Of a DNA stretch of 64,000 nt, positions 1 through 60,200 are shown one piece after another; within the stretch, counting starts at the first letter, position 1; the number at the start of each line of letters is the position of its first letter. The notes below the pieces were generated by a model. The model had not been told where the DNA came from. It saw nothing but the letters and a program-made list of their open reading frames with translations, and did no database searches. The position numbers were made by a program, and so were the translations under genes. The DNA comes from Escherichia coli (GTDB lineage Bacteria; Pseudomonadota; Gammaproteobacteria; Enterobacterales; Enterobacteriaceae), in the NCBI RefSeq assembly GCF_003334765.1, contig NZ_QOWT01000002.1, one strand, 5' to 3'.

Positions 1-870
1 ATTGATGTCGATACCTTTCGTGGCACCCGTGAAGGCGTGCCGCGTCTGCTGGAAATCTTGAGTAAGCATAATATTCAGGCCAGCATTTTTTTCAGCGTCG
101 GCCCGGACAATATGGGCCGCCATCTCTGGCGACTGGTGAAGCCACAGTTTTTGTGGAAGATGCTGCGCTCAAACGCGGCATCGCTTTATGGCTGGGATAT
201 TTTACTGGCAGGTACGGCCTGGCCAGGTAAAGAGATTGGTCATGCCAATGCCGATATCATTCGTGAAGCGGCTAAACATCACGAAGTCGGCCTGCACGCC
301 TGGGATCACCATGCCTGGCAAGCCCGTAGCGGTAACTGGGATCGGCAAACAATGATCGACGATATTGCACGCGGTCTTCGCACTCTGGAAGAGATTATCG
401 GTCAACCGGTAACCTGTTCTGCCGCTGCGGGCTGGCGTGCCGACCAGAAGGTGATCGAAGCAAAAGAAGCGTTCCATTTGCGCTACAACAGCGATTGTCG
501 TGGGGCCATGCCGTTCCGTCCATTGCTCGAATCAGGAAACCCTGGCACTGCGCAAATTCCGGTGACCTTACCCACCTGGGATGAAGTGATTGGTCGGGAT
601 GTGAAAGCAGAAGATTTTAACGGTTGGTTACTCAACCGCATCCTGCGAGATAAAGGCACGCCGGTTTATACCATTCATGCAGAAGTTGAAGGCTGCGCTT
701 ATCAGCATAATTTTGTGGATCTCCTCAAACGCGCAGCTCAGGAAGGCGTGACATTTTGCCCTTTAAGCGAACTGTTATCAGAGACGTTGCCGCTCGGACA
801 AGTTGTTCGCGGAAATATTGCCGGACGTGAAGGCTGGCTGGGTTGCCAACAAATTGCGGGTAGTCGCTGA
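1..870 (+). CDS. arnD: ArnD, 4-deoxy-4-formamido-L-arabinose-phosphoundecaprenol deformylase (5'-truncated by window edge)
   Basis: Frame open from position 1 with no start codon in window; translated sequence recognised as ArnD C-terminal ~290 aa; stop TGA overlaps arnT ATG at 868-872. Confidence 0.9.
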
Positions 871-2522
871 TGAAATCGGTACGTTACCTTATCGGCCTCT
901 TCGCGTTTATTGCCTGCTATTACCTGTTACCGATCAGCACGCGTCTGCTCTGGCAACCCGATGAAACGCGTTATGCGGAAATCAGTCGAGAAATGCTGGC
1001 ATCCGGCGACTGGATTGTGCCCCATCTGTTAGGGCTACGTTATTTCGAAAAACCCATTGCCGGATACTGGATTAACAGCATTGGGCAATGGCTATTTGGC
1101 GCGAATAACTTTGGTGTGCGGGCAGGCGTTATCTTTGCGACCCTGTTAACTGCCGCGCTGGTGACCTGGTTTACTCTGCGCTTATGGCGCGATAAACGTC
1201 TGGCTCTACTCGCCACAGTAATTTATCTCTCATTGTTTATTGTCTATGCCATCGGCACTTATGCCGTGCTCGATCCGTTTATTGCATTCTGGCTGGTGGC
1301 GGGAATGTGCAGCTTCTGGCTGGCAATGCAGGCACAGACGTGGAAAGGCAAAAGCGCAGGATTTTTACTGCTGGGAATCACCTGCGGCATGGGGGTGATG
1401 ACCAAAGGTTTTCTCGCCCTTGCCGTGCCGGTATTAAGCGTGCTGCCATGGGTAGCGACGCAAAAACGCTGGAAAGATCTCTTTATTTACGGCTGGCTGG
1501 CGGTTATCAGTTGCGTACTGACGGTTCTCCCTTGGGGACTGGCGATAGCGCAGCGGGAGCCTAACTTCTGGCACTATTTTTTCTGGGTTGAGCATATTCA
1601 ACGCTTTGCACTGGATGATGCCCAACATAGAGCTCCGTTCTGGTACTACGTGCCGGTCATCATTGCCGGTAGCCTGCCGTGGCTGGGATTACTCCCCGGT
1701 GCACTGTACACAGGCTGGAAAAACCGCAAGCATTCCGCAACCGTCTATTTGTTGAGCTGGACGATAATGCCGCTGCTGTTTTTCTCCGTCGCTAAAGGTA
1801 AATTGCCCACCTATATTCTTTCCTGCTTTGCATCTCTGGCAATGCTGATGGCGCATTACGCTTTGCTGGCAGCAAAAAATAATCCTCTGGCGCTGCGGAT
1901 TAATGGCTGGATTAACATCGCTTTTGGCGTCACTGGCATTATTGCCACATTTGTGGTCTCCCCGTGGGGACCAATGAACACGCCGGTGTGGCAAACCTTC
2001 GAGAGCTATAAAGTCTTTTGTGCCTGGTCGATTTTTTCGCTATGGGCATTTTTCGGCTGGTACACCTTAACAAACGTCGAAAAGACCTGGCCTTTTGCCG
2101 CGCTTTGCCCGCTGGGGCTGGCGTTGCTGGTAGGATTTTCAATTCCTGACAGAGTTATGGAAGGAAAACATCCGCAATTTTTTGTCGAGATGACACAAGA
2201 ATCACTTCAGCCAAGCCGCTATATTCTTACTGATAGCGTCGGTGTTGCCGCAGGTCTGGCATGGAGCCTGCAACGCGATGACATCATCATGTATCGCCAG
2301 ACAGGTGAGTTGAAATACGGCCTTAATTATCCGGATGCGAAAGGGAGATTTGTCAGCGGTGATGAGTTCGCAAACTGGCTTAATCAACATCGTCAGGAGG
2401 GGATTATTACTCTCGTGCTTTCGGTTGACCGCGATGAAGATATCAACAGTCTCGCCATTCCGCCCGCAGATGCCATCGATCGTCAGGAGCGTCTGGTGCT
2501 GATTCAGTATCGTCCCAAATGA
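870..2522 (+). CDS. arnT: ArnT, undecaprenyl-phosphate 4-amino-4-deoxy-L-arabinose transferase (lipid A modification)
   Basis: 550-aa ORF, strongly hydrophobic multi-pass membrane protein; start overlaps arnD stop; operon context. Confidence 0.95.
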
Positions 2523-2854
2523 TCTGGCTAACATTAGTCTTTGCCAGCTTGCTTAGCGTTGCCGGGCAGTTGTGTCAGAAACAGGCAACCTGCTTTGTGG
2601 CGATAAACAAACGGCGCAAACATATCGTGCTGTGGCTGGGACTGGCGCTGGCTTGTCTTGGTCTTGCCATGGTGCTCTGGCTGCTGGTCTTGCAGAACGT
2701 ACCGGTAGGCATTGCTTACCCGATGTTAAGTCTGAATTTTGTCTGGGTGACGCTGGCTGCAGTAAAACTGTGGCACGAACCGGTATCGCCGCGTCACTGG
2801 TGTGGGGTGGCGTTCATTATTGGCGGCATTGTGATCCTCGGGAGTACGGTGTAA
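2519..2854 (+). CDS. arnE: ArnE, small membrane flippase subunit for undecaprenyl-phosphate-L-Ara4N
   Basis: 111-aa hydrophobic ORF; ATG overlaps arnT stop (ATGA at 2519-2522). Confidence 0.92.
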
Positions 2855-3240
2855 TGGGCCTGATGTGGGGATTATTCAGCGTCATTATTGCCTCAGTTGC
2901 GCAATTAAGCCTGGGTTTTGCGGCGAGTCATCTGCCGCCGATGACGCACTTATGGGATTTTATCGCGGCTCTGTTAGCTTTTGGCCTGGATGCCCGGATA
3001 CTGTTACTCGGGCTGCTGGGTTATCTGCTTTCCGTTTTTTGTTGGTATAAAACGCTTCATAAACTTGCGCTAAGCAAAGCCTATGCCTTGCTCAGTATGA
3101 GTTATGTGCTGGTATGGATTGCTTCAATGGTACTTCCCGGCTGGGAAGGGACTTTTTCGCTGAAAGCACTACTGGGAGTAGCCTGTATTATGAGCGGGTT
3201 GATGCTGATTTTCCTGCCCACGACAAAACAACGTTACTGA
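2854..3240 (+). CDS. arnF: ArnF, small membrane flippase subunit
   Basis: 128-aa hydrophobic protein starting MGLMWGLF at the ATG overlapping arnE stop (TAATG at 2852-2856); the ORF track shows a longer same-frame ORF from 2572 that I reject. Confidence 0.88.
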
Positions 3241-3500
3241 GTTTTCCCTGCCACTTTACACTGCCGTTCCCACTCATCGGGGCTATAACTGCTTGCCGAG
3301 AGGACTTTCACCGTATGCAGCTTTTCACGATTAATACAATAAAGCGCATTCTGCAAAGGCGAGAGTAAATCCCCCACTTTCACGGCGAAGTCACTCTTCA
3401 CTTCGGCGATCATTTTTATCGCGCCGCCAGCATCGCAGAGCATAAGTACATGTCTGTTATCTTGTTTATTGCAGCACGATTTTTTGACCAGCCATTCCAT
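3234..3500 (-). CDS. pmrD: PmrD, connector protein linking PhoPQ to PmrAB (BasRS) signalling
   Basis: 88-aa product starting MEWLVKK recognised as PmrD; ORF track allows a 10-codon upstream extension to 3530; stop overlaps arnF stop tail-to-tail. Confidence 0.85.
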
Positions 3501-3609
3501 TGCATTATCCTGTTTGCTAAGAGTTTTCACATCAATTTACAGATTAACAGATAAACTCTTTATCAACGGCAATGGAATGGCAGAAATGAGAAGTGAAACG
3601 GAGGGTTAA

Positions 3610-4965
3610 TTATTGCTGACGTTGCACCCACTCTTTTAGCGCCTGACGTGAAATTTTAATACCGCCGTTTTTCAGCTCCGGCGGCAGAGTTAGCCAGCGC
3701 ACCGGTTGTTGAAAACGGGCCAGCTTATCTTTCACCCATTCACTAAGATCAACGCTCTCGTGGTCATACTCCATCACCGCCACCGGTCGATGACCAAACT
3801 CCTTGTCGGCAACGGGGACGATAAACACCTGCAAAACCGCAGGATGTGCAGCAATTACGCGCTCGACTTCTTCCGGCTGAATACCCTCTCCGCCACTGAA
3901 GAATAGATTGTCTAAACGTCCGACAATGGTCAGCTTGCCATTATGCATCTCACCGCGATCGCGCGTAGCGTACCAGCCTTCGTCATTAACCAGTGAAACC
4001 AGTTGCCCGTTACGCCAGTAACCTTCTGCCATACTGGCAGCCCGCAGCCACACTTCATTATTAACGATTTTCACTTCCCGACCCGGCAGCGGCGAACCAA
4101 CGTCTGCCAGGCCGTCGGCTTCTTTCGCACACACCGTGGAGGCAAACTCGGTCAGACCATAGCCGCAAAAGCAACGAATCCCCTGCTCGCGCGCCTGTTC
4201 CGTCAACTCGACCGGGATAGCCGCGCCGCCAAGTAACACCGCTTTCAGGGAAACGGAACTACGGTTAACCAGCAAACGCCAGAGTTGTGTTGGCACCAGT
4301 GAAGCGTGAGTACAGCCTGCCAGCATTTGCTCCAATGGCTGTTTATCACGTACCGTCATCCGCGCACCAGCGTATAACCAGCGCCACATAATTCCCTGAC
4401 CGGAGACGTGAAACAGCGGTAAAGAGAGCAACCAATCATCGTGATCGCCAAACGGAATCAGCGATAACACACCTTGCGCACTGGCAAGATGGGCCTGATA
4501 AGTATGGACAGCGGCTTTCGGCAAACCGGTAGAACCCGAGGTCAACGTCATTGAGCACAGACGCGTCGGCTGCCACGTAGCGGCATGTGCGCCTTCAACC
4601 AGCTGAATGTGCAGCGACGTTAATGCCGGAAACGTGTTTTCCCCATCCGGCACCAGAGCAAATTGCAGCGTCAGATTGGGCAGCAATTCTTCAAGCAACG
4701 GTTGCGGCAGCTGAGGGTTCACGGGCAACACCCGCGCCCCGCATTGCAGTAACGCCAGCCAGGCGAGCAGCGTTTGCGGCGTATTCCACGCCCGCAACAT
4801 CACGCCGCTGCCCTCAACCACCCCCTGCACCGCAAATCCGGAGGCTAATTCATCGACGCGAGCACAAAGCTCGCGCCAGTTGAGTTGCTCGTCATTAAGA
4901 CGTAAGGCGATGGTTTCTCCCCGCACTTGCCGCCAGTGACGCCACGGCCAGTCAGAGAAGATCAT
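3610..4965 (-). CDS. menE: MenE, o-succinylbenzoate-CoA ligase
   Basis: 451-aa ORF with AMP-binding motif [10 protein letters not shown]; start overlaps menC stop; men operon context. Confidence 0.95.
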
Positions 4966-5924
4966 AACAACCGCTCCAGTGCATCAACTTCCACGACAGG
5001 CAGCGTGCTACCCGGCCAGCGACGTACCTGCTGCGCCTGCATCAGATCCAGCGTGTCCAGCCCTGGAATGGTGTCCGGCGTTAACCAGGCGGCAATCCGC
5101 GCCAGTTGCGTTAAGCCTAAGCTCGATTCAATGGAAGAACTGATCACCGCCGTCAGCCCCAGCGCGTGCGCCGCCTGTACCTGCTCGCGTACTTTTTCCA
5201 GACTGCCCGTGAGCGTGGGTTTGATAACTACCGCGCGCACGCCCTCTTCAGCCACAAAGGCAAAATCCGGCTCGCGCAGGCTTTCATCCCAGGCAATGGC
5301 AATGCCGGTTTCACGGGCAAACGCTCGCGAATCATCGCGGGTTTTGCACGGCTCTTCGAGAAACGCGATGCGGTCGCGATAATCCGGGTTAACGTATTTG
5401 GCAAACTGCTGACCTTTCAGCGGTGTCCAGGCGCGATTTGCGTCAAGACGCAAATGCAGATCCGGAATTGCCTCCAGCAACAGATTCACCACCATGCCGT
5501 CGCGCACCGCTTCGTACAATCCCACTTTGACCTTCGCCACTTTCTCGCCTGGCATATCTGCAAGTTTGAGGATCAGATCGTCCGGATCGCCATTACACAG
5601 CGGTGCCGCACGGTAGTTGGCTGCTTGCGGCAACGTATCTGTCAGTTCTGCCAATGCACAGCTTACGCCAAAGGCCACGGAAGGCATCTGCGGTAGCTCG
5701 CAATCGCCTGCCAGCCAGTTATTTACCCAGGCAAGCAGCACACTTTGCGCCTCTTCCCAGGTTTCCTGACTGAAGCCCGGCAGTGGGGAGATCTCCCCCC
5801 ACCCTTCGCGCTCGCCTTCACGCAGGCAAACATACAGCCCGTCGCGGGTTTTTAACCGCCTGTCGCGCAGAACCACCCCCGCGTCCATGGGGATCTGCCA
5901 GCGGTATACCTGCGCGCTACGCAT
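4962..5924 (-). CDS. menC: MenC, o-succinylbenzoate synthase (enolase superfamily)
   Basis: 320-aa ORF recognised as MenC; overlaps menE (4 nt) and menB (1 nt). Confidence 0.95.
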
Positions 5925-6781
5925 TACGGATTCCGTTTGAATTTGCTGAAGTCAGGCTGACGTTTCTGGTTGAAGGCGTTGCGACCTTCCTGACCTTCTT
6001 CCGTCATGTAGAACAGCATGGTGGCGTTGCCCGCCAGCTCCTGCAGCCCCGCCTGCCCGTCACAGTCGGCGTTCAGTGCAGCTTTCAGGCAGCGCAGCGC
6101 CATCGGGCTGTTTTGCAGCATTTCGCGGCACCAACGGACGGTTTCTTTTTCCAGATCCGCCAGCGGTACCACGGTGTTCACAAGGCCCATATCCAGCGCC
6201 TGTTTTGCGTCGTACTGACGGCACAGGAACCAGATTTCACGCGCTTTTTTCTGCCCGACGATGCGAGCCATGTAGGAAGCGCCCCAGCCGCCGTCGAAGG
6301 AACCGACTTTCGGGCCAGTCTGACCGAAGATGGCATTATCTGCCGCGATAGTCAGGTCGCACATCATGTGCAGAACGTGACCGCCGCCGATGGAGTAGCC
6401 AGCCACCATCGCGACAACCGGTTTCGGACAGGTACGGATCTGACGCTGGAAGTCCAGCACATTCAGGTGATGTACGCCGGAATCATCTTTATAGCCGCCG
6501 TAATCACCACGCACTTTCTGGTCACCACCGGAGCAGAACGCTTTATCGCCTGCACCAGTCAGAATGATCACGCCGATGTTGTCGTCATAACGCGCATCTG
6601 CCAGCGCCTGGATCATCTCTTTTACCGTCAGAGGACGGAAGGCATTGCGCACCTGCGGACGATTAATGGTGATTTTTGCGATACCGTCGGTGGATTTTTC
6701 ATAACGAATGTCCTCGAAACCTTCGGAGCAGTCGTGCCATTCAACCGGTGCGTAAAGCATTGCTTCATCAGGATAAATCAT
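5924..6781 (-). CDS. menB: MenB, 1,4-dihydroxy-2-naphthoyl-CoA synthase (crotonase fold)
   Basis: 285-aa ORF recognised as MenB; operon context. Confidence 0.95.
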
Positions 6782-6795
6782 ATTGTGTCCTTTAG

Positions 6796-7554
6796 TCAGA
6801 AACGCAAGATCTGCGCCAGACTTGCGATTACGCCAGCGGGATTTTCCCGATGCGCGTTATGTCCGGCGCGAGGAATGACATGGCAGTCGGCAGCCAGTTC
6901 CGCCGCCAGGGCGCGGAATTTGCTGTCACGTTCACCACATAAATAATAAAACGCAAATGTGCGGGCGCTAAGGTTAGCACGTAAATCAGGCTGGACGGCG
7001 AGAGAAGTCGCCTCCAGCATGGCGGCAAGCGTTGCGCCATTATTGTTGCTGCGCAGCGCCACCAGCTCCCGGCGTTGATCGTCATTGAGTGAGGCAAAAA
7101 CAGGCTGTTGATACCAGTCGGCAAATACCGCCGTTAACGGTTCTGTGAGAAAACGCTGCACCCATTGGCGATCGGAACGCTGACGTTCCGCACGTTGTTC
7201 AGCATTTTGCAGCCCCGGATGCCCGCCTTCGACAATAACCCCACAAAGCCCCGCCAGCCCCTGGCAAGCCGCCATCATCGCCACCCGTCCACCAAGCGAG
7301 TACCCCACCAGCCAGAAGTCAAGGATGTTGTAACTAACCAAGGTTTTACGCAGTAAGTCGGTGACATCATCAAATCCATCGACGCTAATCGCCGCCGAAC
7401 CACCGTGACCTGGGAGATCAACATACAACCGTGAGTAGTCGGCAAACGCCTCGCCCACTTCTTGCCATTCGTGGCAATCGCCGGAAAAACCGTGCAAAAA
7501 CACCAGCCAGGGTAAACCTGGTTTTCCGTGTTTTGCCTGCGCGTGCAGGATCAT
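6796..7554 (-). CDS. menH: MenH, SHCHC synthase (alpha/beta hydrolase)
   Basis: 252-aa ORF with hydrolase nucleophile motif GYSLGG; start overlaps menD stop by 4 nt. Confidence 0.93.
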
Positions 7555-9221
7555 AAATGGCTTACCTGCGCCAGAAGTTGCTGGAGCGTTTGCGCACCAT
7601 CGGTGTCGTTAACCACCATTTCAATCACCGTGGTGGTTGGCGTGCGCCAGGCGTCGGCAAATGCCGTTTCAAGTTCCTGCCAGTTTTGCGGACGATGATA
7701 TTTCAGCTCGAACATCGCGGCGGCGTGCTCAAAATGGACGTTTTGCGGCATCAGATAGAAACGCTCACGCTCGCTTTGCGGCGTTGGCAACAGCGAGAAA
7801 ATTTGCCCGCCGTTGTTGTTCACCACAATTAATACCAGCGGCGCAGAAACCTGACGCAATAACGCCAGCGCGTTGAGATCGTAAAGTGCGGAGAGATCGC
7901 CCACAATCGCCAGCGTCGGTTTGCCGCTTGCCCGCTGAACGCCGGCGGCGGTCGAAAGCAGCCCGTCGATACCGCTGGCCCCACGGTTGCTGTACACCGG
8001 GTAACCTGCCGGAAGTTGCGAAAGCGCATCAATCAGACGTACCACCAGGCTGTTACCAACAAACAATTGCCCCTGTTCAGGCAGATAGTCGCAGATGCGA
8101 TGCGCCAGTTGCGCTTCGCCAAACGCATCACGGCGGGCAATAACCGCCTGCATTGCCTGTTCCGCCAGGCGCGGGATTTCAACGCACCAGGGCTGGCGTT
8201 TTTCTGCCGGATGCAGCTCCAGCCAGTCGGCAATATTGGCAATTAAGCGACGTCCGCGATGGTGTGCCGGATCAAGTCGCCCTTCAATGTCATCAACAAT
8301 CCAGTACTCTTCTGGTTCACAGCTTGCCTGCCATTGCAGGAGCCGTTTCCCCGTCAGGCTGCTTCCCAGTTGCACCACAATTTGCGCCTGCTGCAGCTCG
8401 CTGGTCGCTTTGGCATTGCCTAACCAAAGATCGGCACACGGCAGCGGCTGCCCGGTTTGTGACAGCACATCGCCAATCAGCGGCCAGCCAAGAGTTTGCG
8501 CCCACAGGGCAACTTTTTTGCCCTCTTCCGCACTCATGCGCCCGGCAACCACCACGCCGCGCTTTTGTCGCCAGAAGAACCAGTCGCGCTGTTTTTCACT
8601 TTCCAGACGAGGCGCTTCACGCAGCCACGGTTTGTCGTCCTGCCACCAGTCACCCAGACGCTGTTGCCAGCTAAGCCCGGTATCGTCCATTTCGCCATAC
8701 AGCGGTTCAGCAAACGGGCAGTTGATATGGACTCCCCCCGCATGAAGCGTACCGAGAGCGTGGTCGATGGTAGAAACCAGCCAACGTGCGGGGATATCCT
8801 GGGTCGGGCGCGGCAATGAAATACTGTGCGTGGGGTGAGAGGCGAACATTCCCGGCTGGCGAATTGCCTGATTCGCGCCGCAGTCAATTAGCTCCGGCGG
8901 GCGATCGGCGGTTAAGAGAATCAGTTTTTCTCCGGTTAACCCGGCTTCAATCAGTGCTGGATAGAGATTTGCCACCGCCGTGCCGGAGGTCACAATCACC
9001 GCCACCGGCTGCTTGCTGACTTTCGCCAGCCCCAGCGCCAGATGCCCCAACCCACGCTCATCGAAATGGGTGTGGTGAATGAATGCGGAATTCTCCGCCG
9101 CCGCTAACGTTAACGGTGTAGAACGCGAGCCTGGGGCGATACAGATGTGTCTGACGCCGTGACGCGTTAATGCTTCCAGAATGACCGCCGCCCAGCGTCG
9201 GTTAAATGCGCTTACTGACAT
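7551..9221 (-). CDS. menD: MenD, SEPHCHC synthase (ThDP-dependent)
   Basis: 556-aa protein starting [10 protein letters not shown]; ThDP motif [12 protein letters not shown]...NNNGG present; the ORF track extends the frame 117 codons further upstream (to 9572), which I treat as non-coding. Confidence 0.9.
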
Positions 9222-9309
9222 GAGTTTGTCCGGTATCAATATTGCGGCTAAGTATAAGGAGCTACAAAAATAGATTATTGATATGAATCGGTAATGATGC
9301 GACTCATTA

Positions 9310-10605
9310 CTATTCCATTTGTAATAAAGTACGCAGCCCTGCCGCTTTGTTGTCGATTTCCTGCCACTCTTGCTCGGGGTCGGAACCACGGACAATGCCC
9401 GCGCCAGCATATAATCGCACGACATTGCCGCTAATTTTTGCTGAGCGCAGGGAAACGCAGAATTCGCTTTGTTGTAATGAGAGATAGCCCGCAGAACCGG
9501 CGTACCATTCTCGGGTGAACGGTTCGTGACGGGCGATAAACTGTCGCGCCAGATCGCGCGGTAAGCCAGCAACTGCTGCCGTTGGCTGCAACTGATGTAA
9601 ACAGATCACATCATCCGCTTTGTTGAGTGAAGTCCAGATACAGCGGCGAAGATGCTGCACTTTACGCAGACGCAGTACCTGCGGCGGTAAAACATCCAGC
9701 GTCTGGGTATCGGCCTGTAATCGTTGACAGATATCTTCCACCACCAGCATGTTCTCGCGCTGGTTTTTATCATCCGCCATCAGCCACTCTCCTAACTGCT
9801 GCGCCTGCTTATCATCAGGATTATTTGCTACTGTTCCCGCCAGCGCTTCAGTACGCAGCGCTTTGTCACGCCGCCGCCATAACCGTTCCGGTGAAGAGCC
9901 AAGAAAAGCATTTTCGCCATCAAAGGCCATGTAAAAATGGTAGCAATTCAGATTCAGTCGACGACTGGCAGCCATCATCGCCGCCGCGTTGACCGGACTT
10001 GCGAAATGCAGGTCAGTTGCCCGAGCGAGCACCACTTTGTCGAGCTCACCTTCGGCGATGGTTTTCGTTGCCAGTTCGATTAATTGCGTCCAGCCCGTTT
10101 TGTCCGGCCAGTGTTGTTCTCGCGTGGTGGTTAAATGTAACCCAGGCAAGGGCTTGATACTCACCAGTGTGGCGATAAATTCTTTTGCCTGAATCGCATC
10201 GTGCTGAAGGGAGCTTTCGCTGAATAGCGTCAGCCGCAGCGTGGCTTTACCGCCACAGCGTCGCCATTCCAGGCGGGGTAAAAGTAAATTGCCCTGCGAC
10301 GGGTCAAAAGCATTCAGCCCCCAAATGCGTAAGTCGGCGTGTTCCGGGTGCTGGCGAAGAAAACGTTGTGCCTGGTCCAACGACGTAAAACGGGTAATCG
10401 CGCCCAGGACGACAGCTTCTTCATCACCATTACGTTGTTGCCAGTAGAATTGCGGGTATGTTTGCTGACTGGCCAGCCAGCTCAAGGCATCAAAAGCGTC
10501 TTTGAGAGGGAAAGGAATATCGATAACCCGAATGCCGGGTGTCGCCGGAATCTCTTGCGACAAATGGCGCAGTAGATTTTCCAGCGCCGTAGTAAGTGAT
10601 TGCAC
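9310..10605 (-). CDS. menF: MenF, isochorismate synthase (menaquinone-specific)
   Basis: 431-aa chorismate-binding enzyme; GTG start codon; first gene of the men cluster. Confidence 0.93.
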
Positions 10606-10683
10606 GCGGACCTCTCCCTGTTAAAAGCCTCACATTATACGGGGTACTACAAAAAAAATGCAGTACCCCGGTGTAGGGAGGTT

Positions 10684-10989
10684 TTAACGGCGTGCCAGCA
10701 ACAGTCCTAGTACCAGCCCAACGGCCGCGCCCACACCAATTCCTTGCCAGGGTTTTTCGTGGACGTAGTCATCAGCACGATAAACTGCCTGCTTCGCCCG
10801 ATAGTAATAACTGTCTGAAGCCTGGCTAACCCGTTTTTTCACATCATCCAGCGCTTTTTCTGCACGCGCTTTCAGCTCAACATATTTCTGATCGGCGGGA
10901 TCGCCAGAGGAGCGGAGCACCTCTTCCAGTGTTTCACTAAGCAGCGTCAGGTCGTCATCGATACGTGTATCACCAAACTGATTAGACAT
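10684..10989 (-). CDS. elaB: ElaB, small tail-anchored membrane protein (DUF883 family)
   Basis: 101-aa ORF with C-terminal hydrophobic anchor GAAVGLVLGLLLA; recognised as ElaB. Confidence 0.9.
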   Translation of the reverse strand: MSNQFGDTRIDDDLTLLSETLEEVLRSSGDPADQKYVELKARAEKALDDVKKRVSQASDSYYYRAKQAVYRADDYVHEKPWQGIGVGAAVGLVLGLLLARR

Positions 10990-11043
10990 TCTCGTTCTCC
11001 ATTTGCGTAAAACCTGTCACTAACTATAGACAAGGGTTGTTGA

Positions 11044-11505
11044 TTACGCCTGAATTACCTCGCGTGCCATCCCAATGTGTGGGATACCATCTTCTTCATA
11101 GACCTCCGTCACAGGGATAAAACCGAAACTCTGGTAGAAGTTTTGCAGATGCGCCTGCGCCCCGAGGTAAACAGGCTTATCAGGCCAGTGATGCGTACAT
11201 GTTTCGAGTGTTTTACTCATCAGCTGCTGCCCCACTTTTTCGCCACGCAACGCTTCACTGACAATCACCCGACCTATAACGACCGGCTCAAGATCATCAT
11301 CACTTTTCAGAATCCTCGCATACGCCACCAGTTCATCATTTTTCCAACCGAGAATATGGCGATTATCCCCCGTCAAATCATCACCATCGATATCCTGATA
11401 AGGGCAATTCTGCTCGACAACAAACACCGCGCAACGCAGTTGTAATAAGGCATAAAGCTGGGAAACCGATAATTCAGAGTGATGCAGATCTTGCCATTCA
11501 ATCAT
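11044..11505 (-). CDS. elaA: ElaA, GNAT-family N-acetyltransferase
   Basis: 153-aa ORF recognised as ElaA; divergent from rbn. Confidence 0.9.
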   Translation of the reverse strand: MIEWQDLHHSELSVSQLYALLQLRCAVFVVEQNCPYQDIDGDDLTGDNRHILGWKNDELVAYARILKSDDDLEPVVIGRVIVSEALRGEKVGQQLMSKTLETCTHHWPDKPVYLGAQAHLQNFYQSFGFIPVTEVYEEDGIPHIGMAREVIQA

Positions 11506-11569
11506 AATGCTCTCCTTTTAGATGTATGCCTTATACTAGCCGGAATATTTTTTGAAACGTGATGAACTC

Positions 11570-12487
11570 ATGGAATTAATTTTTTTAGGTACTTCAGCCG
11601 GTGTGCCAACCCGCACGCGCAATGTCACGGCAATATTGCTTAACCTGCAACATCCGACCCAGAGCGGACTTTGGTTGTTTGACTGCGGTGAAGGCACCCA
11701 GCATCAGCTACTGCATACCGCCTTTAACCCTGGAAAACTGGACAAGATTTTTATCAGTCACCTTCATGGCGATCATCTTTTTGGTTTACCCGGCTTGCTG
11801 TGCAGTCGTTCTATGTCAGGCATTATCCAACCCTTAACGATTTATGGTCCGCAAGGTATCCGTGAATTTGTGGAAACCGCGCTGCGGATTAGCGGCTCAT
11901 GGACCGATTATCCGCTGGAAATTGTCGAAATTGGCGCTGGCGAAATTCTCGATGATGGCCTGCGCAAAGTAACCGCTTATCCGCTGGAACACCCACTGGA
12001 ATGTTATGGCTATCGTATTGAAGAACATGATAAACCGGGTGCATTAAATGCCCAGGCATTAAAAGCTGCTGGCGTGCCGCCTGGCCCACTGTTTCAGGAA
12101 TTAAAAGCGGGCAAAACAATCACGCTGGAAGATGGAAGGCAGATTAACGGCGCAGATTACTTAGCTGCTCCAGTGCCAGGTAAAGCGCTCGCTATTTTCG
12201 GCGATACCGGCCCCTGCGATGCCGCACTTGACCTGGCTAAAGGTGTCGATGTCATGGTGCACGAAGCGACGCTGGATATAACCATGGAAGCCAAAGCCAA
12301 TAGTCGCGGCCATAGCTCTACACGCCAGGCTGCGACACTAGCCCGTGAGGCTGGAGTCGGCAAGCTAATCATTACCCACGTCAGCTCGCGCTATGATGAC
12401 AAAGGTTGTCAGCACCTGTTACGTGAATGCAGGTCAATTTTCCCGGCGACTGAACTGGCGAATGATTTCACCGTGTTTAACGTTTAA
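11570..12487 (+). CDS. rbn: RNase BN / RNase Z (metallo-beta-lactamase fold tRNA 3' processing nuclease)
   Basis: 305-aa protein starting [11 protein letters not shown] with HLHGDH zinc motif; ORF track starts at an upstream TTG (11552), ATG at 11570 preferred. Confidence 0.9.
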
Positions 12488-12504
12488 CTCTGCTTATTAT
12501 TAAA

Positions 12505-32016: not shown

Positions 32017-33819
32017 TTAGCGGTCCACATCTGACATAACAAAATCGATACTGCCCAGATAAACAATCAGGTCAGACACCAGGCTGCCGCGGATCGCCGC
32101 CGGAATTTGCTGCAAATGCGCAAAGCTCGGGGTACGAACACGGGTGCGGTAACTCATGGTGCTGCCGTCGCTGGTCAGGTAGTAACTGTTGATCCCTTTG
32201 GTCGCCTCAATCATCTGGAAAGATTCATTGGCAGGCATCACCGGACCCCACGACACTTGCAGGAAGTGGGTGATCAGGGTTTCGATATGTTGCAGCGTGC
32301 GCTCTTTCGGCGGCGGCGTGGTCAGCGGGTGATCCGCTTTGAACGGGCCTTCCGGCATGTTGTTGAGGCACTGCTCAAGAATGCGCAGACTCTGGCGCAG
32401 CTCTTCCACTTTAAGCATTACGCGGGTGTAGCAGTCAGAAACGCCACCACCCACCGGGATTTCAAAGTCGAAGTTTTCATAGCCAGAATAAGGACGCGCC
32501 TTACGCACGTCGAAGTCGATCCCGGTAGCACGCAGGCCCGCGCCAGTGGTGCCCCACTCCAGCGCCTCTTTCGCGCCATAGGCGGCAACGCCCTGGGAAC
32601 GACCTTTCAGAATGGTGTTTTGCAGCGCCGCTTTCTCGTAAGACGCCAGACGTTTCGGCATCCAGTCGAGGAACTCACGCAGCAGGCGATCCCAGCCGCG
32701 CGGCAGGTCGTGCGCTACGCCGCCAATACGGAACCACGCCGGGTGCATACGGAAACCAGTGATTGCTTCCACCAGATCGTAAATTTTCTGACGATCGGTA
32801 AAGGCGAAGAACACTGGCGTCATTGCGCCGACGTCCTGAATAAAGGTCGAGATATACAGCAGGTGACTGTTGATGCGGAACAGTTCGGAGAGCATAACGC
32901 GAATGACGTTAACGCGATCCGGCACGGTGATCCCGGCCAGTTTCTCTACCGCCAGCACGTAAGGCATTTCGTTAACGCAGCCGCCGAGGTATTCGATACG
33001 GTCAGTATACGGAATGTAGCTGTGCCAGGACTGGCGTTCGCCCATTTTCTCCGCACCACGGTGGTGGTAACCGATGTCTGGTACGCAGTCGACAATCTCT
33101 TCGCCATCGAGTTGCAAAACGATACGGAAAGCCCCGTGCGCCGACGGGTGGTTCGGACCGAGGTTGAGGAACATGAAGTCCTCGTTTTCGGTGCCGCGCT
33201 TCATCCCCCACTCTTCCGGTTTGAAGGTCAGGGCTTCCATCTCCAGATCCTGTTTGGCTTTGGTCAGCTCAAACGGCGAGAATTCGGTAGCGCGCGCCGG
33301 ATAATCTTTACGCAGCGGGTGACCTTTCCAGGTTTGCGGCATCATGATGCGTCGCAGGTTCGGGTGACCGTCGAAAGTAATGCCAAACAGATCCCAGGTT
33401 TCACGCTCATACCAGTTAGCGTTCGGGAACAGTTTGGTGAAGGTCGGTACGTGCAGGTCGTTTTCTGCCAGCGCCACCTTCAGCATGATGTCGCGGTTAC
33501 GATCGATAGAAATCAGATGGTAGAAAACGGAAAAATCCGCGGCAGGTAACCCTTCGCGGTGTGTGCGCAGACGTTCGTCCATGCCGTGTAAGTCAAACAG
33601 CATGACGTAAGGTTTCGGCAGTTTCTTTAAGAAATCGCCAACTTCCAGTAATTGTTCACGCTTGATCCACACAACGGGAACCCCGGTGCGAGTCGCCTGA
33701 ACAGTAAAGGCATCCGGCCCAAAACGGTTGCGCAGTTCGCCAATCACCGGATCATCAAGATGATCGCGGGTCTGCCAGGCGGGTTCTTGCGCGGTTAAGT
33801 CGGTCATATTGTTCACCAT
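32017..33819 (-). CDS. nuoC: NADH:quinone oxidoreductase fused subunit C/D
   Basis: 600-aa maximal ORF spanning both NuoC-like and NuoD-like halves; annotated start may be the ATG four codons downstream (33807). Confidence 0.93.
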
Positions 33820-43431: not shown

Positions 43432-44634
43432 ATGTCGAGTAAGTTAGTACTGGTTCTGAACTGCGGTAGTTCTTCACTGAAATTTGCCATCATCGATGCA
43501 GTAAATGGTGAAGAGTACCTTTCTGGTTTAGCCGAATGTTTCCACCTGCCCGAAGCACGTATCAAATGGAAAATGGACGGCAATAAACAGGAAGCGGCTT
43601 TAGGTGCAGGCGCCGCTCACAGCGAAGCGCTCAACTTTATCGTTAATACTATTCTGGCACAAAAACCAGAACTGTCTGCGCAGCTGACTGCTATCGGTCA
43701 CCGTATCGTACACGGCGGCGAAAAGTATACCAGCTCCGTAGTGATCGATGAGTCTGTTATTCAGGGTATCAAAGATGCAGCTTCTTTTGCACCGCTGCAC
43801 AACCCGGCTCACCTGATCGGTATCGAAGAAGCTCTGAAATCTTTCCCACAGCTGAAAGACAAAAACGTTGCTGTATTTGACACCGCGTTCCACCAGACTA
43901 TGCCGGAAGAGTCTTACCTCTACGCCCTGCCTTACAACCTGTACAAAGAGCACGGCATCCGTCGTTACGGCGCGCACGGCACCAGCCACTTCTATGTAAC
44001 CCAGGAAGCGGCAAAAATGCTGAACAAACCGGTAGAAGAACTGAACATCATCACCTGCCACCTGGGCAACGGTGGTTCCGTTTCTGCTATCCGCAACGGT
44101 AAATGCGTTGACACCTCTATGGGCCTGACCCCGCTGGAAGGTCTGGTCATGGGTACCCGTTCTGGTGATATCGATCCGGCGATCATCTTCCACCTGCACG
44201 ACACCCTGGGCATGAGCGTTGACGCAATCAACAAACTGCTGACCAAAGAGTCTGGCCTGCTGGGTCTGACCGAAGTGACCAGCGACTGCCGCTATGTTGA
44301 AGACAACTACGCGACGAAAGAAGACGCGAAGCGCGCAATGGACGTTTACTGCCACCGCCTGGCGAAATACATCGGTGCCTACACTGCGCTGATGGATGGT
44401 CGTCTGGACGCTGTTGTATTCACTGGTGGTATCGGTGAAAATGCCGCAATGGTTCGTGAACTGTCTCTGGGCAAACTGGGCGTGCTGGGCTTTGAAGTTG
44501 ATCATGAACGCAACCTGGCTGCACGTTTCGGCAAATCTGGTTTCATCAACAAAGAAGGTACCCGTCCTGCGGTGGTTATCCCAACCAACGAAGAACTGGT
44601 TATCGCGCAAGACGCGAGCCGCCTGACTGCCTGA
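43432..44634 (+). CDS. ackA: Acetate kinase
   Basis: 400-aa ORF recognised as AckA (starts [20 protein letters not shown]); followed by hairpin and pta. Confidence 0.97.
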
Positions 44635-44639
44635 TTTCA

Positions 44640-44669
44640 CACCGCCAGCTCAGCTGGCGGTGCTGTTTT
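44640..44669 (+). terminator. Hairpin in the ackA-pta intergenic region (partial terminator/attenuator)
   Basis: 10-bp stem CACCGCCAGC/GCTGGCGGTG followed by CTGTTTTG, 6 nt after the ackA stop. Confidence 0.6.
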
Positions 44670-44708
44670 GTAACCCGCCAAATCGGCGGTAACGAAAGAG
44701 GATAAACC

Positions 44709-46853
44709 GTGTCCCGTATTATTATGCTGATCCCTACCGGAACCAGCGTCGGTCTGACCAGCGTCAGCCTTGGCGTGATCCGTGCAATGGAACGCAAAGG
44801 CGTTCGTCTGAGCGTTTTCAAACCTATCGCTCAGCCGCGTACCGGTGGCGATGCGCCCGATCAGACTACGACTATCGTGCGTGCGAACTCTTCCACCACG
44901 ACGGCCGCTGAACCGCTGAAAATGAGCTACGTTGAAGGTCTGCTTTCCAGCAATCAGAAAGATGTGCTGATGGAAGAGATCGTCGCAAACTACCACGCTA
45001 ACACCAAAGACGCTGAAGTCGTTCTGGTTGAAGGTCTGGTCCCGACACGTAAGCACCAGTTTGCCCAGTCTCTGAACTACGAAATCGCTAAAACGCTGAA
45101 TGCGGAAATCGTCTTCGTTATGTCTCAGGGCACTGACACCCCGGAACAGCTGAAAGAGCGTATCGAACTGACCCGCAACAGCTTCGGCGGTGCCAAAAAC
45201 ACCAACATCACCGGCGTTATCGTTAACAAACTGAACGCACCGGTTGATGAACAGGGTCGTACTCGCCCGGATCTGTCCGAGATTTTCGACGACTCTTCCA
45301 AAGCTAAAGTAAACAATGTTGATCCGGCGAAGCTGCAAGAATCCAGCCCGCTGCCGGTTCTCGGCGCTGTGCCGTGGAGCTTTGACCTGATCGCGACTCG
45401 TGCGATCGATATGGCTCGCCACCTGAATGCGACCATCATCAACGAAGGCGACATCAATACTCGCCGCGTTAAATCCGTCACTTTCTGCGCACGCAGCATT
45501 CCGCACATGCTGGAGCACTTCCGTGCCGGTTCTCTGCTGGTGACTTCCGCAGACCGTCCTGACGTGCTGGTGGCCGCTTGCCTGGCAGCCATGAACGGCG
45601 TAGAAATCGGTGCCCTGCTGCTGACTGGCGGTTACGAAATGGACGCGCGCATTTCTAAACTGTGCGAACGTGCTTTCGCTACCGGCCTGCCGGTATTTAT
45701 GGTGAACACCAACACCTGGCAGACCTCTCTGAGCCTGCAGAGCTTCAACCTGGAAGTTCCGGTTGACGATCACGAACGTATCGAGAAAGTTCAGGAATAC
45801 GTTGCTAACTACATCAACGCTGACTGGATCGAATCTCTGACTGCCACTTCTGAGCGCAGCCGTCGTCTGTCTCCGCCTGCGTTCCGTTATCAGCTGACTG
45901 AACTTGCGCGCAAAGCGGGCAAACGTATCGTACTGCCGGAAGGTGACGAACCGCGTACCGTTAAAGCAGCCGCTATCTGTGCTGAACGTGGTATCGCAAC
46001 TTGCGTACTGCTGGGTAATCCGGCAGAGATCAACCGTGTTGCAGCGTCTCAGGGTGTAGAACTGGGTGCAGGGATTGAAATCGTTGATCCAGAAGTGGTT
46101 CGCGAAAGCTATGTTGGTCGTCTGGTCGAACTGCGTAAGAACAAAGGCATGACCGAAACCGTTGCCCGCGAACAGCTGGAAGACAACGTGGTGCTCGGTA
46201 CGCTGATGCTGGAACAGGATGAAGTTGATGGTCTGGTTTCCGGTGCTGTTCACACTACCGCAAACACCATCCGTCCGCCGCTGCAGCTGATCAAAACTGC
46301 ACCGGGCAGCTCCCTGGTATCTTCCGTGTTCTTCATGCTGCTGCCGGAACAGGTTTACGTTTACGGTGACTGTGCGATCAACCCGGATCCGACCGCTGAA
46401 CAGCTGGCAGAAATCGCGATTCAGTCCGCTGATTCCGCTGCGGCCTTCGGTATCGAACCGCGCGTTGCTATGCTCTCCTACTCCACCGGTACTTCTGGTG
46501 CAGGTAGCGACGTAGAAAAAGTTCGCGAAGCAACTCGTCTGGCGCAGGAAAAACGTCCTGACCTGATGATCGACGGTCCGCTGCAGTACGACGCTGCGGT
46601 AATGGCTGACGTTGCGAAATCCAAAGCGCCGAACTCTCCGGTTGCAGGTCGCGCTACCGTGTTCATCTTCCCGGATCTGAACACCGGTAACACCACCTAC
46701 AAAGCGGTACAGCGTTCTGCCGACCTGATCTCCATCGGGCCGATGCTGCAGGGTATGCGCAAGCCGGTTAACGACCTGTCCCGTGGCGCACTGGTTGACG
46801 ATATCGTCTACACCATCGCGCTGACTGCGATTCAGTCTGCACAGCAGCAGTAA
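44709..46853 (+). CDS. pta: Phosphate acetyltransferase
   Basis: 714-aa ORF, GTG start preceded by AAGAGG RBS; recognised as Pta; strong terminator downstream. Confidence 0.97.
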
Positions 46854-46863
46854 TCTCGTCATC

Positions 46864-46925
46864 ATCCGCAGCTTTGCGCTGCGGATATCTGAACCGGAAA
46901 TAATCACTATTTCCGGTTTTTTATT
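46864..46925 (+). terminator. pta terminator (tandem hairpins, second U-tailed)
   Basis: ATCCGCAGC-TTTG-GCTGCGGAT then CCGGAAATA-loop-TATTTCCGG followed by TTTTTT. Confidence 0.8.
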
Positions 46926-47042
46926 CTCTTAATTTGCATTAATCCTTTCTGATTATCTTGCTTAACTGCGCTGCATCAATGAATTGCGCCATCCCACTTT
47001 GCATACTTACCACTTTGTTTTGTGCAAGGGAATATTTGCGCT

Positions 47043-58682: not shown

Positions 58683-60200
58683 TCATCCTTCGTTATGCAT
58701 TTCGAGATTTTCCACTTCGTTCTGACGTTGCACTGCTTTGGCGTCATCATTACGTAACGTATCGAGGAAATCGAGGTAGCCCTGATCAACATCTTTGGTG
58801 ACGTAGACGCCGTTGAACACCGAGCATTCAAACTGCTGGATATCCGGATTTTCAGCGCGAACGGCGTCGATCAGATCGTTCAGATCCTGGAAAATCAACC
58901 CGTCAGCACCGATGATCTGGCGAATTTCATCAACTTCGCGACCGTGAGCGATCAGTTCCGTGGCGCTCGGCATATCAATACCATAAACGTTCGGGAAGCG
59001 AATTTCCGGTGCCGCAGAAGCGAGGTACACTTTCTTCGCTCCGGCTTCGCGTGCCATCTCGATAATCTGCTCAGAAGTGGTGCCACGGACGATGGAGTCG
59101 TCGACCAGCAGGACGTTTTTATCGCGGAACTCGGCGCGGTTGGCATTCAGTTTACGGCGCACGGACTTACGACGCAGCTGCTGGCCCGGCATGATAAAGG
59201 TGCGGCCAACATAGCGGTTTTTAACGAAGCCCTGGCGGTACGGTTTGCCCAGAATACGAGCAATTTCCAGCGCGATATCACACGAGGTTTCTGGGATCGG
59301 GATCACCACGTCGATATCCAGATCTTCCCATTCGCGGGCAATTTTCTCGCCCAGTTTCGTGCCCATATTCACACGCGCGCTGTAAACGGAAATTTTGTCG
59401 ATAAACGAGTCCGGGCGGGCAAAGTATACATACTCAAACAGGCACGGATTGCTGACCGGATTGTCAGCACATTGACGGGTAAACAACTGCCCTTCTTCAG
59501 TGATGTAAATCGCTTCGCCCGGCGCGACGTCACGCAGGAAATCAAAGCCCAGCGTATCGAGCGCTACGCTTTCGGAAGCGACCATATATTCTGTACGGTT
59601 CTCGTCAATATCACGTTTTCCCAGTACCAGCGGACGAATCCCGTTTGGATCGCGGAAAGCAACCATACCGTGGCCGATAATCATCGCCACACAGGCATAC
59701 GCGCCGCGGATTAAGCGGTTTGTGGCAGCAATGGCAGCGAAAATATTGTCGGCTTCCAGCGGGTAGTGGCGGAAGTTGTCCAGCTCGCTGGCGAAGATAT
59801 TAAGCAGAATTTCCGAGTCGGAAGTGGTGTTGATGTGGCGGCGTTTTTCTTCAAACAGTTTTTTACGCAACTCGTGAGCGTTGGTCAGATTGCCGTTGTG
59901 GGCAAGCGTAATGCCATACGGGGAGTTAACGTAAAACGGCTGCGCTTCAGAGGCGCTGGAGCTGCCAGCCGTGGGGTAACGCACATGACCAATGCCCATA
60001 TTGCCCTGCAAACGCTGCATATGGCGAGCTTCAAATACATCGCTCACCAGCCCGTTCGCTTTACGCAAACGGAAGCAGTTATTGGCATCTATGGTGATGA
60101 TGCCGGCGGCATCCTGACCGCGATGCTGAAGCACCGTTAAGGCATCATAAATCGACTGGTTAACCGGCATAACACCGGCGATACCGACAATACCGCACAT
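58683..60200 (-). CDS. purF: PurF, amidophosphoribosyltransferase
   Basis: 505-aa ORF with N-terminal catalytic Cys (MCGIVGI) and PRPP-binding motif [13 protein letters not shown]. Confidence 0.97.

Follow-up and report, generated by a model that had tools for sequence, protein, structure and literature searches.

The 756-codon open reading frame (ORF) that lies opposite pta in Escherichia coli is almost certainly a by-product of codon bias in a highly expressed gene, and not a hidden gene. It had originally been predicted, from the sequence alone, that bias against rare Leu and Ser codons in pta explains this frame, and four lines of evidence agree with that explanation: the absence from pta of the rare codons TTG, TCG and AGT, the comparable genes of high expression, the pta orthologues in other species, and the dN/dS values of the two strands.

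The pta Locus and Its Antisense Frame

The window, i.e., the whole stretch of 64,000 nucleotides that was analyzed, is a segment of the E. coli chromosome extending from arnD to accD. It holds 61 complete genes, arnT to accD, the annotation of which was transferred from strain ER1709 and MG1655. The part between 44400 and 47100 matches many E. coli chromosomes at 100% identity and occurs, annotated as ackA-pta-yfcC, in every one of the 5426 complete E. coli genomes. The features of this locus are the following:

43432..44634, plus strand: ackA (transferred annotation)
44709..46853, plus strand: pta (phosphate acetyltransferase), 714 codons; all 5426 of these genomes carry this annotation
44637..46907, minus strand: antisense (shadow) ORF opposite pta, 756 codons including the GTG start, codon-aligned, judged non-coding
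46891..46919, plus strand: intrinsic-terminator-like hairpin of pta, a 12-bp stem followed by a T-run, found by a terminator scan

The antisense ORF spans the whole of pta, together with 74 nt of the ackA-pta spacer and 54 nt 3' of pta. Its triplets share their boundaries with those of pta (44709 and 46905 are both divisible by 3). As the two frames are in exact codon register, antisense stops (TAA, TAG, TGA) can occur only opposite sense TTA, CTA and TCA. The 714 codons of pta, 65 for Leu and 50 for Ser, include none of these three (0 + 0 + 0), and the original prediction of a minus-strand ORF in exact register with a pta gene devoid of TTA, CTA and TCA is borne out by both the ORF list and the codon counts. 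The gene-by-gene count that had been proposed along with it sets 0 of 714 in pta against 451 of 18968 codons, or 2.38%, in the window as a whole.

Codon Usage of pta

The Leu residues of pta are encoded by 59 CTG, 3 CTT and 3 CTC codons, and the Ser residues by 16 TCT, 18 TCC and 16 AGC codons. TTG, TCG and AGT, which form no antisense stop, are likewise absent. The joint absence of TTG/TCG/AGT and TTA/CTA/TCA indicates that non-optimal Leu and Ser codons are avoided in general, and that the avoidance is not specific to stops. This bears directly on the main alternative, namely that the 756-codon frame, wholly or in part, is a genuine overlapping gene that encodes a functional, possibly young and E. 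coli-specific protein, with stops being selected against. Selection of that kind concerns the stop-forming codons, but the rare codons that form no stop are equally missing from pta. In view of this and of the evidence presented below, such a gene is considered very unlikely.

Only six non-optimal Leu/Ser codons are left in pta (3 CTT and 3 CTC). In a ribosomal-protein and elongation-factor reference set, consisting of 30 ribosomal-protein, EF-Tu, EF-G and RpoA genes from MG1655, the stop-forming codons make up 24 of the 106 non-optimal Leu/Ser codons, which gives a probability of about 0.2 for finding none among the six in pta. When codon usage was modeled as a mixture, with the weights estimated without Leu and Ser, the weight towards the ribosomal-protein reference was 0.91 for pta and 0.98 for ackA. 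The codon bias of pta is ribosomal-protein-like, and pta belongs to the highly expressed class from which a shadow ORF is expected.

We infer that translational selection is the force behind this bias. In the proposed mechanism, translational selection on pta as a highly expressed glycolytic-overflow gene would drive Leu almost entirely to CTG and Ser to TCT, TCC and AGC. TTA, CTA and TCA, all of which are non-optimal, would then be absent in the same way as the other missing non-optimal Leu and Ser codons, and the open frame would continue by chance across about 42 flanking intergenic codons until a stop is met. A like origin is proposed for the shorter ORFs opposite menB, ackA, purF, folC and the genes of the nuo operon.

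Expected Number of Antisense Stops

The apparent improbability of the frame depends strongly on the null model. Under window-average codon usage, the probability of zero stop-forming codons in 714 is 3.5e-8, and none of 2000 resamplings with this usage reached zero (0/2000). On this naive expectation, 2.27 kb of open frame speaks for an antisense gene, but the binomial null with window-average usage was rejected, because it ignores the codon bias that is linked to expression.

Two models that take account of the bias were examined, and both are crude. A linear mixture of window and ribosomal-protein usage gave P(0) = 0.003 for pta; it was not trusted as a calibrated test, since it fits the nuo genes poorly (nuoL has 4 stop-forming codons observed vs. 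16 expected). A regression on the non-optimal codons of the other amino acids gave P(0) = 0.035 for pta, a value that is not corrected for the 80 genes examined and that comes from an overdispersed null (chi2/df 1.8). Similar scores were obtained elsewhere under the regression null, including 0.018 for rpoB, 0.007 for nuoL and 0.026 for folC. Within-gene synonymous shuffling says nothing for pta and menB, as the state of a codon-aligned frame that covers the whole gene depends on codon counts alone.

Empirical rates can be taken from genes of the same kind. In ten long, highly expressed K-12 genes (dnaK, rpoB, rpoC, aceE, aceF, lpd, adhE, pflB, fusA, and tufA), 17 of 8127 codons, 1037 of which encode Leu or Ser, are stop-forming. 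This rate predicts 1.5-1.9 such codons in pta, and the corresponding P(0), at the pooled rate of the ten genes, is 0.15-0.22. The fraction of zeros observed among 79 pta orthologues is 0.18. The open frame of pta is unremarkable under nulls that respect the codon bias of the gene, with the values of the mixture (0.003) and of the regression (0.035) still smallish. At the other end of the range, the low-expression genes chiA and gspD contain 15 and 19 stop-forming codons, respectively.

Long codon-aligned antisense runs also occur in the comparison genes. The open runs are as follows:

rpoB: 991 codons
rpoC: 844 codons
aceE: 803 codons
pflB: 752 codons
adhE: 605 codons
fusA: 528 codons
dnaK: 409 codons, the E. 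coli K-12 frame being broken by 2 CTA
tufA: 394 codons, the whole gene

The runs in rpoB, rpoC and aceE are longer than the frame opposite pta, which argues against reading length as a sign of an antisense gene. The pta frame is not the longest of its kind even in a sample of ten genes, and its length is normal for its expression class.

Conservation of the Frame in Orthologues and Strains

An overlapping gene would be expected to keep its frame open. Orthologues were collected from one genome per species, which yielded 80 Enterobacteriaceae pta loci with 90-99% protein identity, 79 of which were analyzed. The antisense frame is fully open in 14 of the 79 and interrupted in 65, with a median of 2 stops and a maximum of 22. 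When three low-bias outliers are left aside, the mean number of stops is 2.08; a Poisson distribution predicts 12.5% zeros, as compared with the 18% observed. The interruptions begin close to E. coli: E. albertii has one antisense stop, at codon 326 of pta, and E. whittamii has two, at codons 255 and 526. Open frames occur sporadically, in Citrobacter werkmanii, Enterobacter asburiae, a Raoultella, two Pluralibacter, a Buttiauxella and others, while congeners of these have stops.

Nine E. coli strains were chosen among the most divergent in the identity ranking. Eight of them have the frame open, and the remaining one, strain 2017.09.02CC, carries CTA at pta codon 704. The frame is also open in two close Escherichia lineages. 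This distribution would suit a young antisense gene, but an open frame in almost every E. coli strain sampled, and in the two Escherichia lineages as well, is no more than expected for a state shared by recent descent, and the breaks in 65 orthologues, E. albertii and E. whittamii included, and in one E. coli strain count against such a gene. Conservation of the antisense frame beyond what the sense strand imposes had been named beforehand as evidence that would overturn the codon-bias explanation; the orthologues and strains show no such conservation. On this comparison of sequences, an old, conserved antisense gene at pta is ruled out.

ackA, the operon partner of pta, was used as the cross-species control, after yfcC, a low-expression control, had been dropped because only 12 of the 79 usable loci retain it in a syntenic position. 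Across species, stop-forming codons amount to 0.39% of codons in pta vs. 0.99% in ackA, about 2.5-fold fewer in pta, and ackA is never found with zero stop-forming codons. This difference speaks against a mere by-product; in E. coli, the stop-forming codons of ackA are confined to its first 57 codons.

Substitution Pattern

In the most divergent E. coli strain, 54 nucleotide differences produce 4 changes in Pta and 49 changes in the antisense translation. Calculated by NG86, dN/dS is 0.014-0.034 for the sense frame of pta; for the antisense frame it is 2.2-3.9 among E. coli strains, and the median over species is 2.5. As NG86 takes no account of overlap, the antisense dN/dS is a coarse test. 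One locus (L014) was left out because its pta dN/dS was nonsensical, probably as a result of a frameshift or misalignment. The median ratio of pta dS to ackA dS is 1.17, i.e., pta has slightly more synonymous change than ackA, the codon bias of which is equally strong. An antisense dN/dS above 2, together with a pta dS not below that of ackA, indicates constraint on the sense frame only, and the absence of extra synonymous constraint on pta is a further point against an antisense gene. Judged from these substitutions, Pta appears to be under strong purifying selection and the antisense translation under none.

Expression Signals and Database Matches

Signals for expression of the antisense frame were searched on the minus strand. 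The antisense GTG start (46905-46907) sits inside the loop of the terminator-like hairpin of pta, and no Shine-Dalgarno-like motif was found upstream of any of the 13 in-frame ATG, GTG or TTG codons in the antisense frame of pta. A sigma-70-like match is present upstream of the antisense ORF, at 46979..46952 on the minus strand. It would favor an antisense gene, but a single match is within the expectation from shuffled sequence (1 found vs. 1.4 expected). A usable promoter together with a ribosome-binding site and a start, as would mark an overlapping gene, was not found for the antisense ORF.

The predicted product is equally unpromising. The composition of the antisense translation is atypical (R 10.7%, F 8.7%, Q 7.8%, K 1.1%, P 0.9%, M 0.3%). 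Scans of the translation against Pfam and NCBIfam gave no match, and a scan of the region against Rfam gave no family. Three start variants, one with the GTG start read as M and two with ATG starts, were looked up as exact sequences among about 15 billion predicted proteins, and none was found. An E. coli survey of antisense overlapping genes (OLGs) does not mention pta in its text and 18 supplements, in which tables may index candidates by coordinates, and a full-text literature search for such a gene or transcript at this locus yielded only a spurious hit on an author's name. The lack of family and protein matches and the silence of the survey also weigh against an antisense gene.

From these features the antisense frame of pta is probably not translated. 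That a part of it is translated weakly from an internal start, as a species-restricted proto-gene whose stops had already been cleared by codon bias, is highly improbable.

Other Antisense Frames and the Role of Base Composition

The frame opposite pta is one of many in the window. Of the 50 ORFs that are 100 aa or longer and carry no annotation, 27 are in the codon-aligned antisense frame, including the seven longest. Besides the ORF opposite pta, the following were considered, all of them codon-aligned:

5783..6946, plus strand: antisense ORF over all of menB, 387 codons
23935..24993, plus strand: antisense ORF opposite nuoL, 352 codons
28847..30130, plus strand: antisense ORF opposite the 5' half of nuoG, 427 codons
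32107..33549, plus strand: antisense ORF opposite nuoC, 480 codons
43600..44640, minus strand: antisense ORF opposite ackA, 346 codons
58944..59714, plus strand: antisense ORF opposite purF, 256 codons
62386..62916, plus strand: antisense ORF opposite the 5' part of folC, 176 codons

These seven ORFs had been described as similar to the one opposite pta. All of them lie at the coordinates then given and are codon-aligned, but the likeness does not extend to complete coverage of the gene, which is found only for pta and menB. The genes ackA, nuoG, nuoC, nuoL, purF and folC, which contain 3-6 TTA/CTA/TCA codons each, are covered in part. menB has none in 285 codons, and its P(0) under the regression null is 0.23. 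nuoE, which was not included in the earlier description, also has zero TTA/CTA/TCA codons.

The four TTA/TCA codons of ackA are at positions 5, 15, 33 and 57, and the antisense ORF ends at this cluster; within-gene shuffling showed that they are more clustered than random placement (P = 0.003). In nuoC the TTA/CTA/TCA codons are at 8, 57, 64, 77, 91 and 596, and shuffling likewise revealed 5' clustering. Those of nuoG are at codons 457, 507, 553, 652 and 825. The antisense ORFs of ackA, menB, purF, folC and the nuo genes are the same by-product of codon bias, with high GC3 adding to it in nuo, where it would additionally disfavor A-ending codons.

This contribution of GC3 raises the question of whether base composition, and not translational selection, could account for pta as well, with GC3 or mutational pressure against A-ending codons removing TTA, CTA and TCA. 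The nuo genes, with a GC3 of 0.62-0.72, have fewer such codons than the mixture predicts (in nuoN 5 vs. 15, besides the deficit in nuoL given above), and AT-rich genes of the window are rich in TTA/CTA/TCA (8.2% in elaD, GC3 0.32). The GC3 of pta is only 0.60, near the window norm, the T-ending codon TCT is favored (16 of 50 Ser) while the G-ending TTG and TCG are absent, and the bias in the other amino acids of pta fits the ribosomal-protein reference. The use of TCT in the absence of TTG and TCG is characteristic of selection in favor of major-tRNA codons and does not reflect GC pressure. Base composition as the cause of the frame opposite pta is extremely unlikely; it probably contributes to the ORFs of the nuo operon but not to that of pta, for which codon bias of a highly expressed gene remains the preferred explanation.

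Relation to Known Antisense ORFs

Long ORFs in frame -1 have been described before (Merino et al., 1994, NAR 22:1903; Silke, 1997, Gene 194:143), as cited by Mir et al. (2012; PMC3454372), who analyzed EHEC E. coli. The ORF opposite pta shares with these shadow ORFs the frame, the restriction of stops to positions opposite TTA, CTA and TCA, and the organism group, and it shows no difference of substance from them. The phenomenon behind the pta antisense ORF is already known (Merino et al., 1994; Silke, 1997; Mir et al., 2012); in the parts of this literature that were consulted, the pta instance was not found to be named.

A close parallel is the frame -1 ORF antisense to dnaK. This ORF, longer than 1800 bp, was once annotated as an NAD-specific glutamate dehydrogenase (PF10712), and an analysis of 929 genomes reported that it is without purifying selection whereas dnaK is under it, and that it is phylogenetically scattered, without a clade-defining origin (Moshensky and Alexeevski, bioRxiv 10.1101/724807). 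The results for the pta orthologues and their substitutions fit the same pattern. The two cases differ in that the dnaK ORF had received a protein annotation and a Pfam family, whereas the antisense translation of pta matches neither Pfam nor NCBIfam and its three start variants are missing from the collection of predicted proteins.

Overlapping genes on the antisense strand have been described for E. coli (PMC9927249; bioRxiv 10.1101/2020.11.18.388249), and as precedents they lend an antisense gene at pta some plausibility. According to their abstracts, the OLGs of O157:H7 (e.g., laoB, PMC5810103; three in PMC9927249) have RNA-seq and Ribo-seq signals and the typical structural elements for expression. 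The pta ORF is likewise embedded antisense in an annotated E. coli gene. Unlike the O157:H7 OLGs, it lacks a Shine-Dalgarno motif, starts within a terminator hairpin and is not conserved.

Implications

The original prediction had added that such frames are raw material for antisense gene birth. This remark is a general one, and the pta locus speaks neither for nor against it. Should translation occur, the frame would represent a large instance of gene birth made possible by codon bias; no finding points there. The pta case is rather a caution: judged by the average codon usage of a genome, very long antisense ORFs seem extremely improbable (about 1e-8 here), and they become ordinary once the bias of the sense gene is counted. 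Three controls are suggested for genome scans, namely whether rare codons that form no antisense stop are absent as well, whether genes of the same expression class look alike, and whether the frame is open in orthologues.

Antisense Frames at the ackA-pta Locus

Two further features accompany the 756-codon minus-strand ORF that lies codon-aligned opposite pta (the pta-antisense ORF):
45125-45592, minus strand: second antisense ORF within pta, 155 aa, with an ATG start and not codon-aligned.
44640-44662: GC-rich hairpin of 10 bp with a T-rich tail after it, in the ackA-pta spacer immediately 3' of the ackA stop.

The second ORF occupies a frame other than that of the pta-antisense ORF, and ORFs of similar size are present in every alternative frame of the window. 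The hairpin, possibly a terminator or attenuator acting within the operon, is where the end of the pta-antisense ORF (44637-44639) meets the start of the ackA-antisense ORF (44640), and these two ORFs are in different frames.

Distribution of Stop-Forming Codons

The sense codons that give stops in the codon-aligned antisense frame, TTA, CTA and TCA, are clustered toward the 5' end in ackA (codons 5, 15, 33, and 57; 43432-43605; P = 0.003 against random placement) and in nuoC (codons 8, 57, 64, 77, and 91; 33545-33819; P < 0.0005 against random placement). Window-wide, they account for 3.2% of the first 60 codons versus 2.2% of the remaining codons, and a 5' concentration was also found in rpoC, aceE, and pflB, three of the long, highly expressed K-12 genes used as comparators. 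Codon use at gene starts is known to be relaxed and AT-rich, and the clustering is consistent with this.

The same codons are common in an AT-rich block of the window:
12000-20000: elaD, yfbK, yfbL, yfbM, yfbN, yfbO, and yfbP; GC 0.40-0.45, versus 0.50-0.58 in the flanking sequence on both sides.

GC3 in this block is 0.31-0.47, and the three codons make up 8.2% of elaD; its genes look horizontally acquired and poorly adapted. Small indels separate the window from E. coli strain ER1709 (NZ_CP030240.1), one source of the transferred annotation, within the first 19 kb (region compared, 1-20000), with coordinate offsets passing from 2 to 1 to 0. The ER1709 annotation lists both purF and yfbO as frameshifted pseudogenes; the window's copy of purF (58683-60200) has an intact reading frame, and no internal stop occurs within the span annotated as yfbO.

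Weakly Biased pta Orthologues

Codon bias is much weaker in three enterobacterial pta orthologues, L081 and L083 (Cedecea sp. and Klebsiella sp. BIGb0407) and L074, with GC3 of 0.47-0.62 and 40 CTG codons. Since these genes carry 19-22 antisense stops while their proteins are still 90-91% identical, the comparison shows that openness of the antisense frame goes with codon bias rather than with protein sequence.
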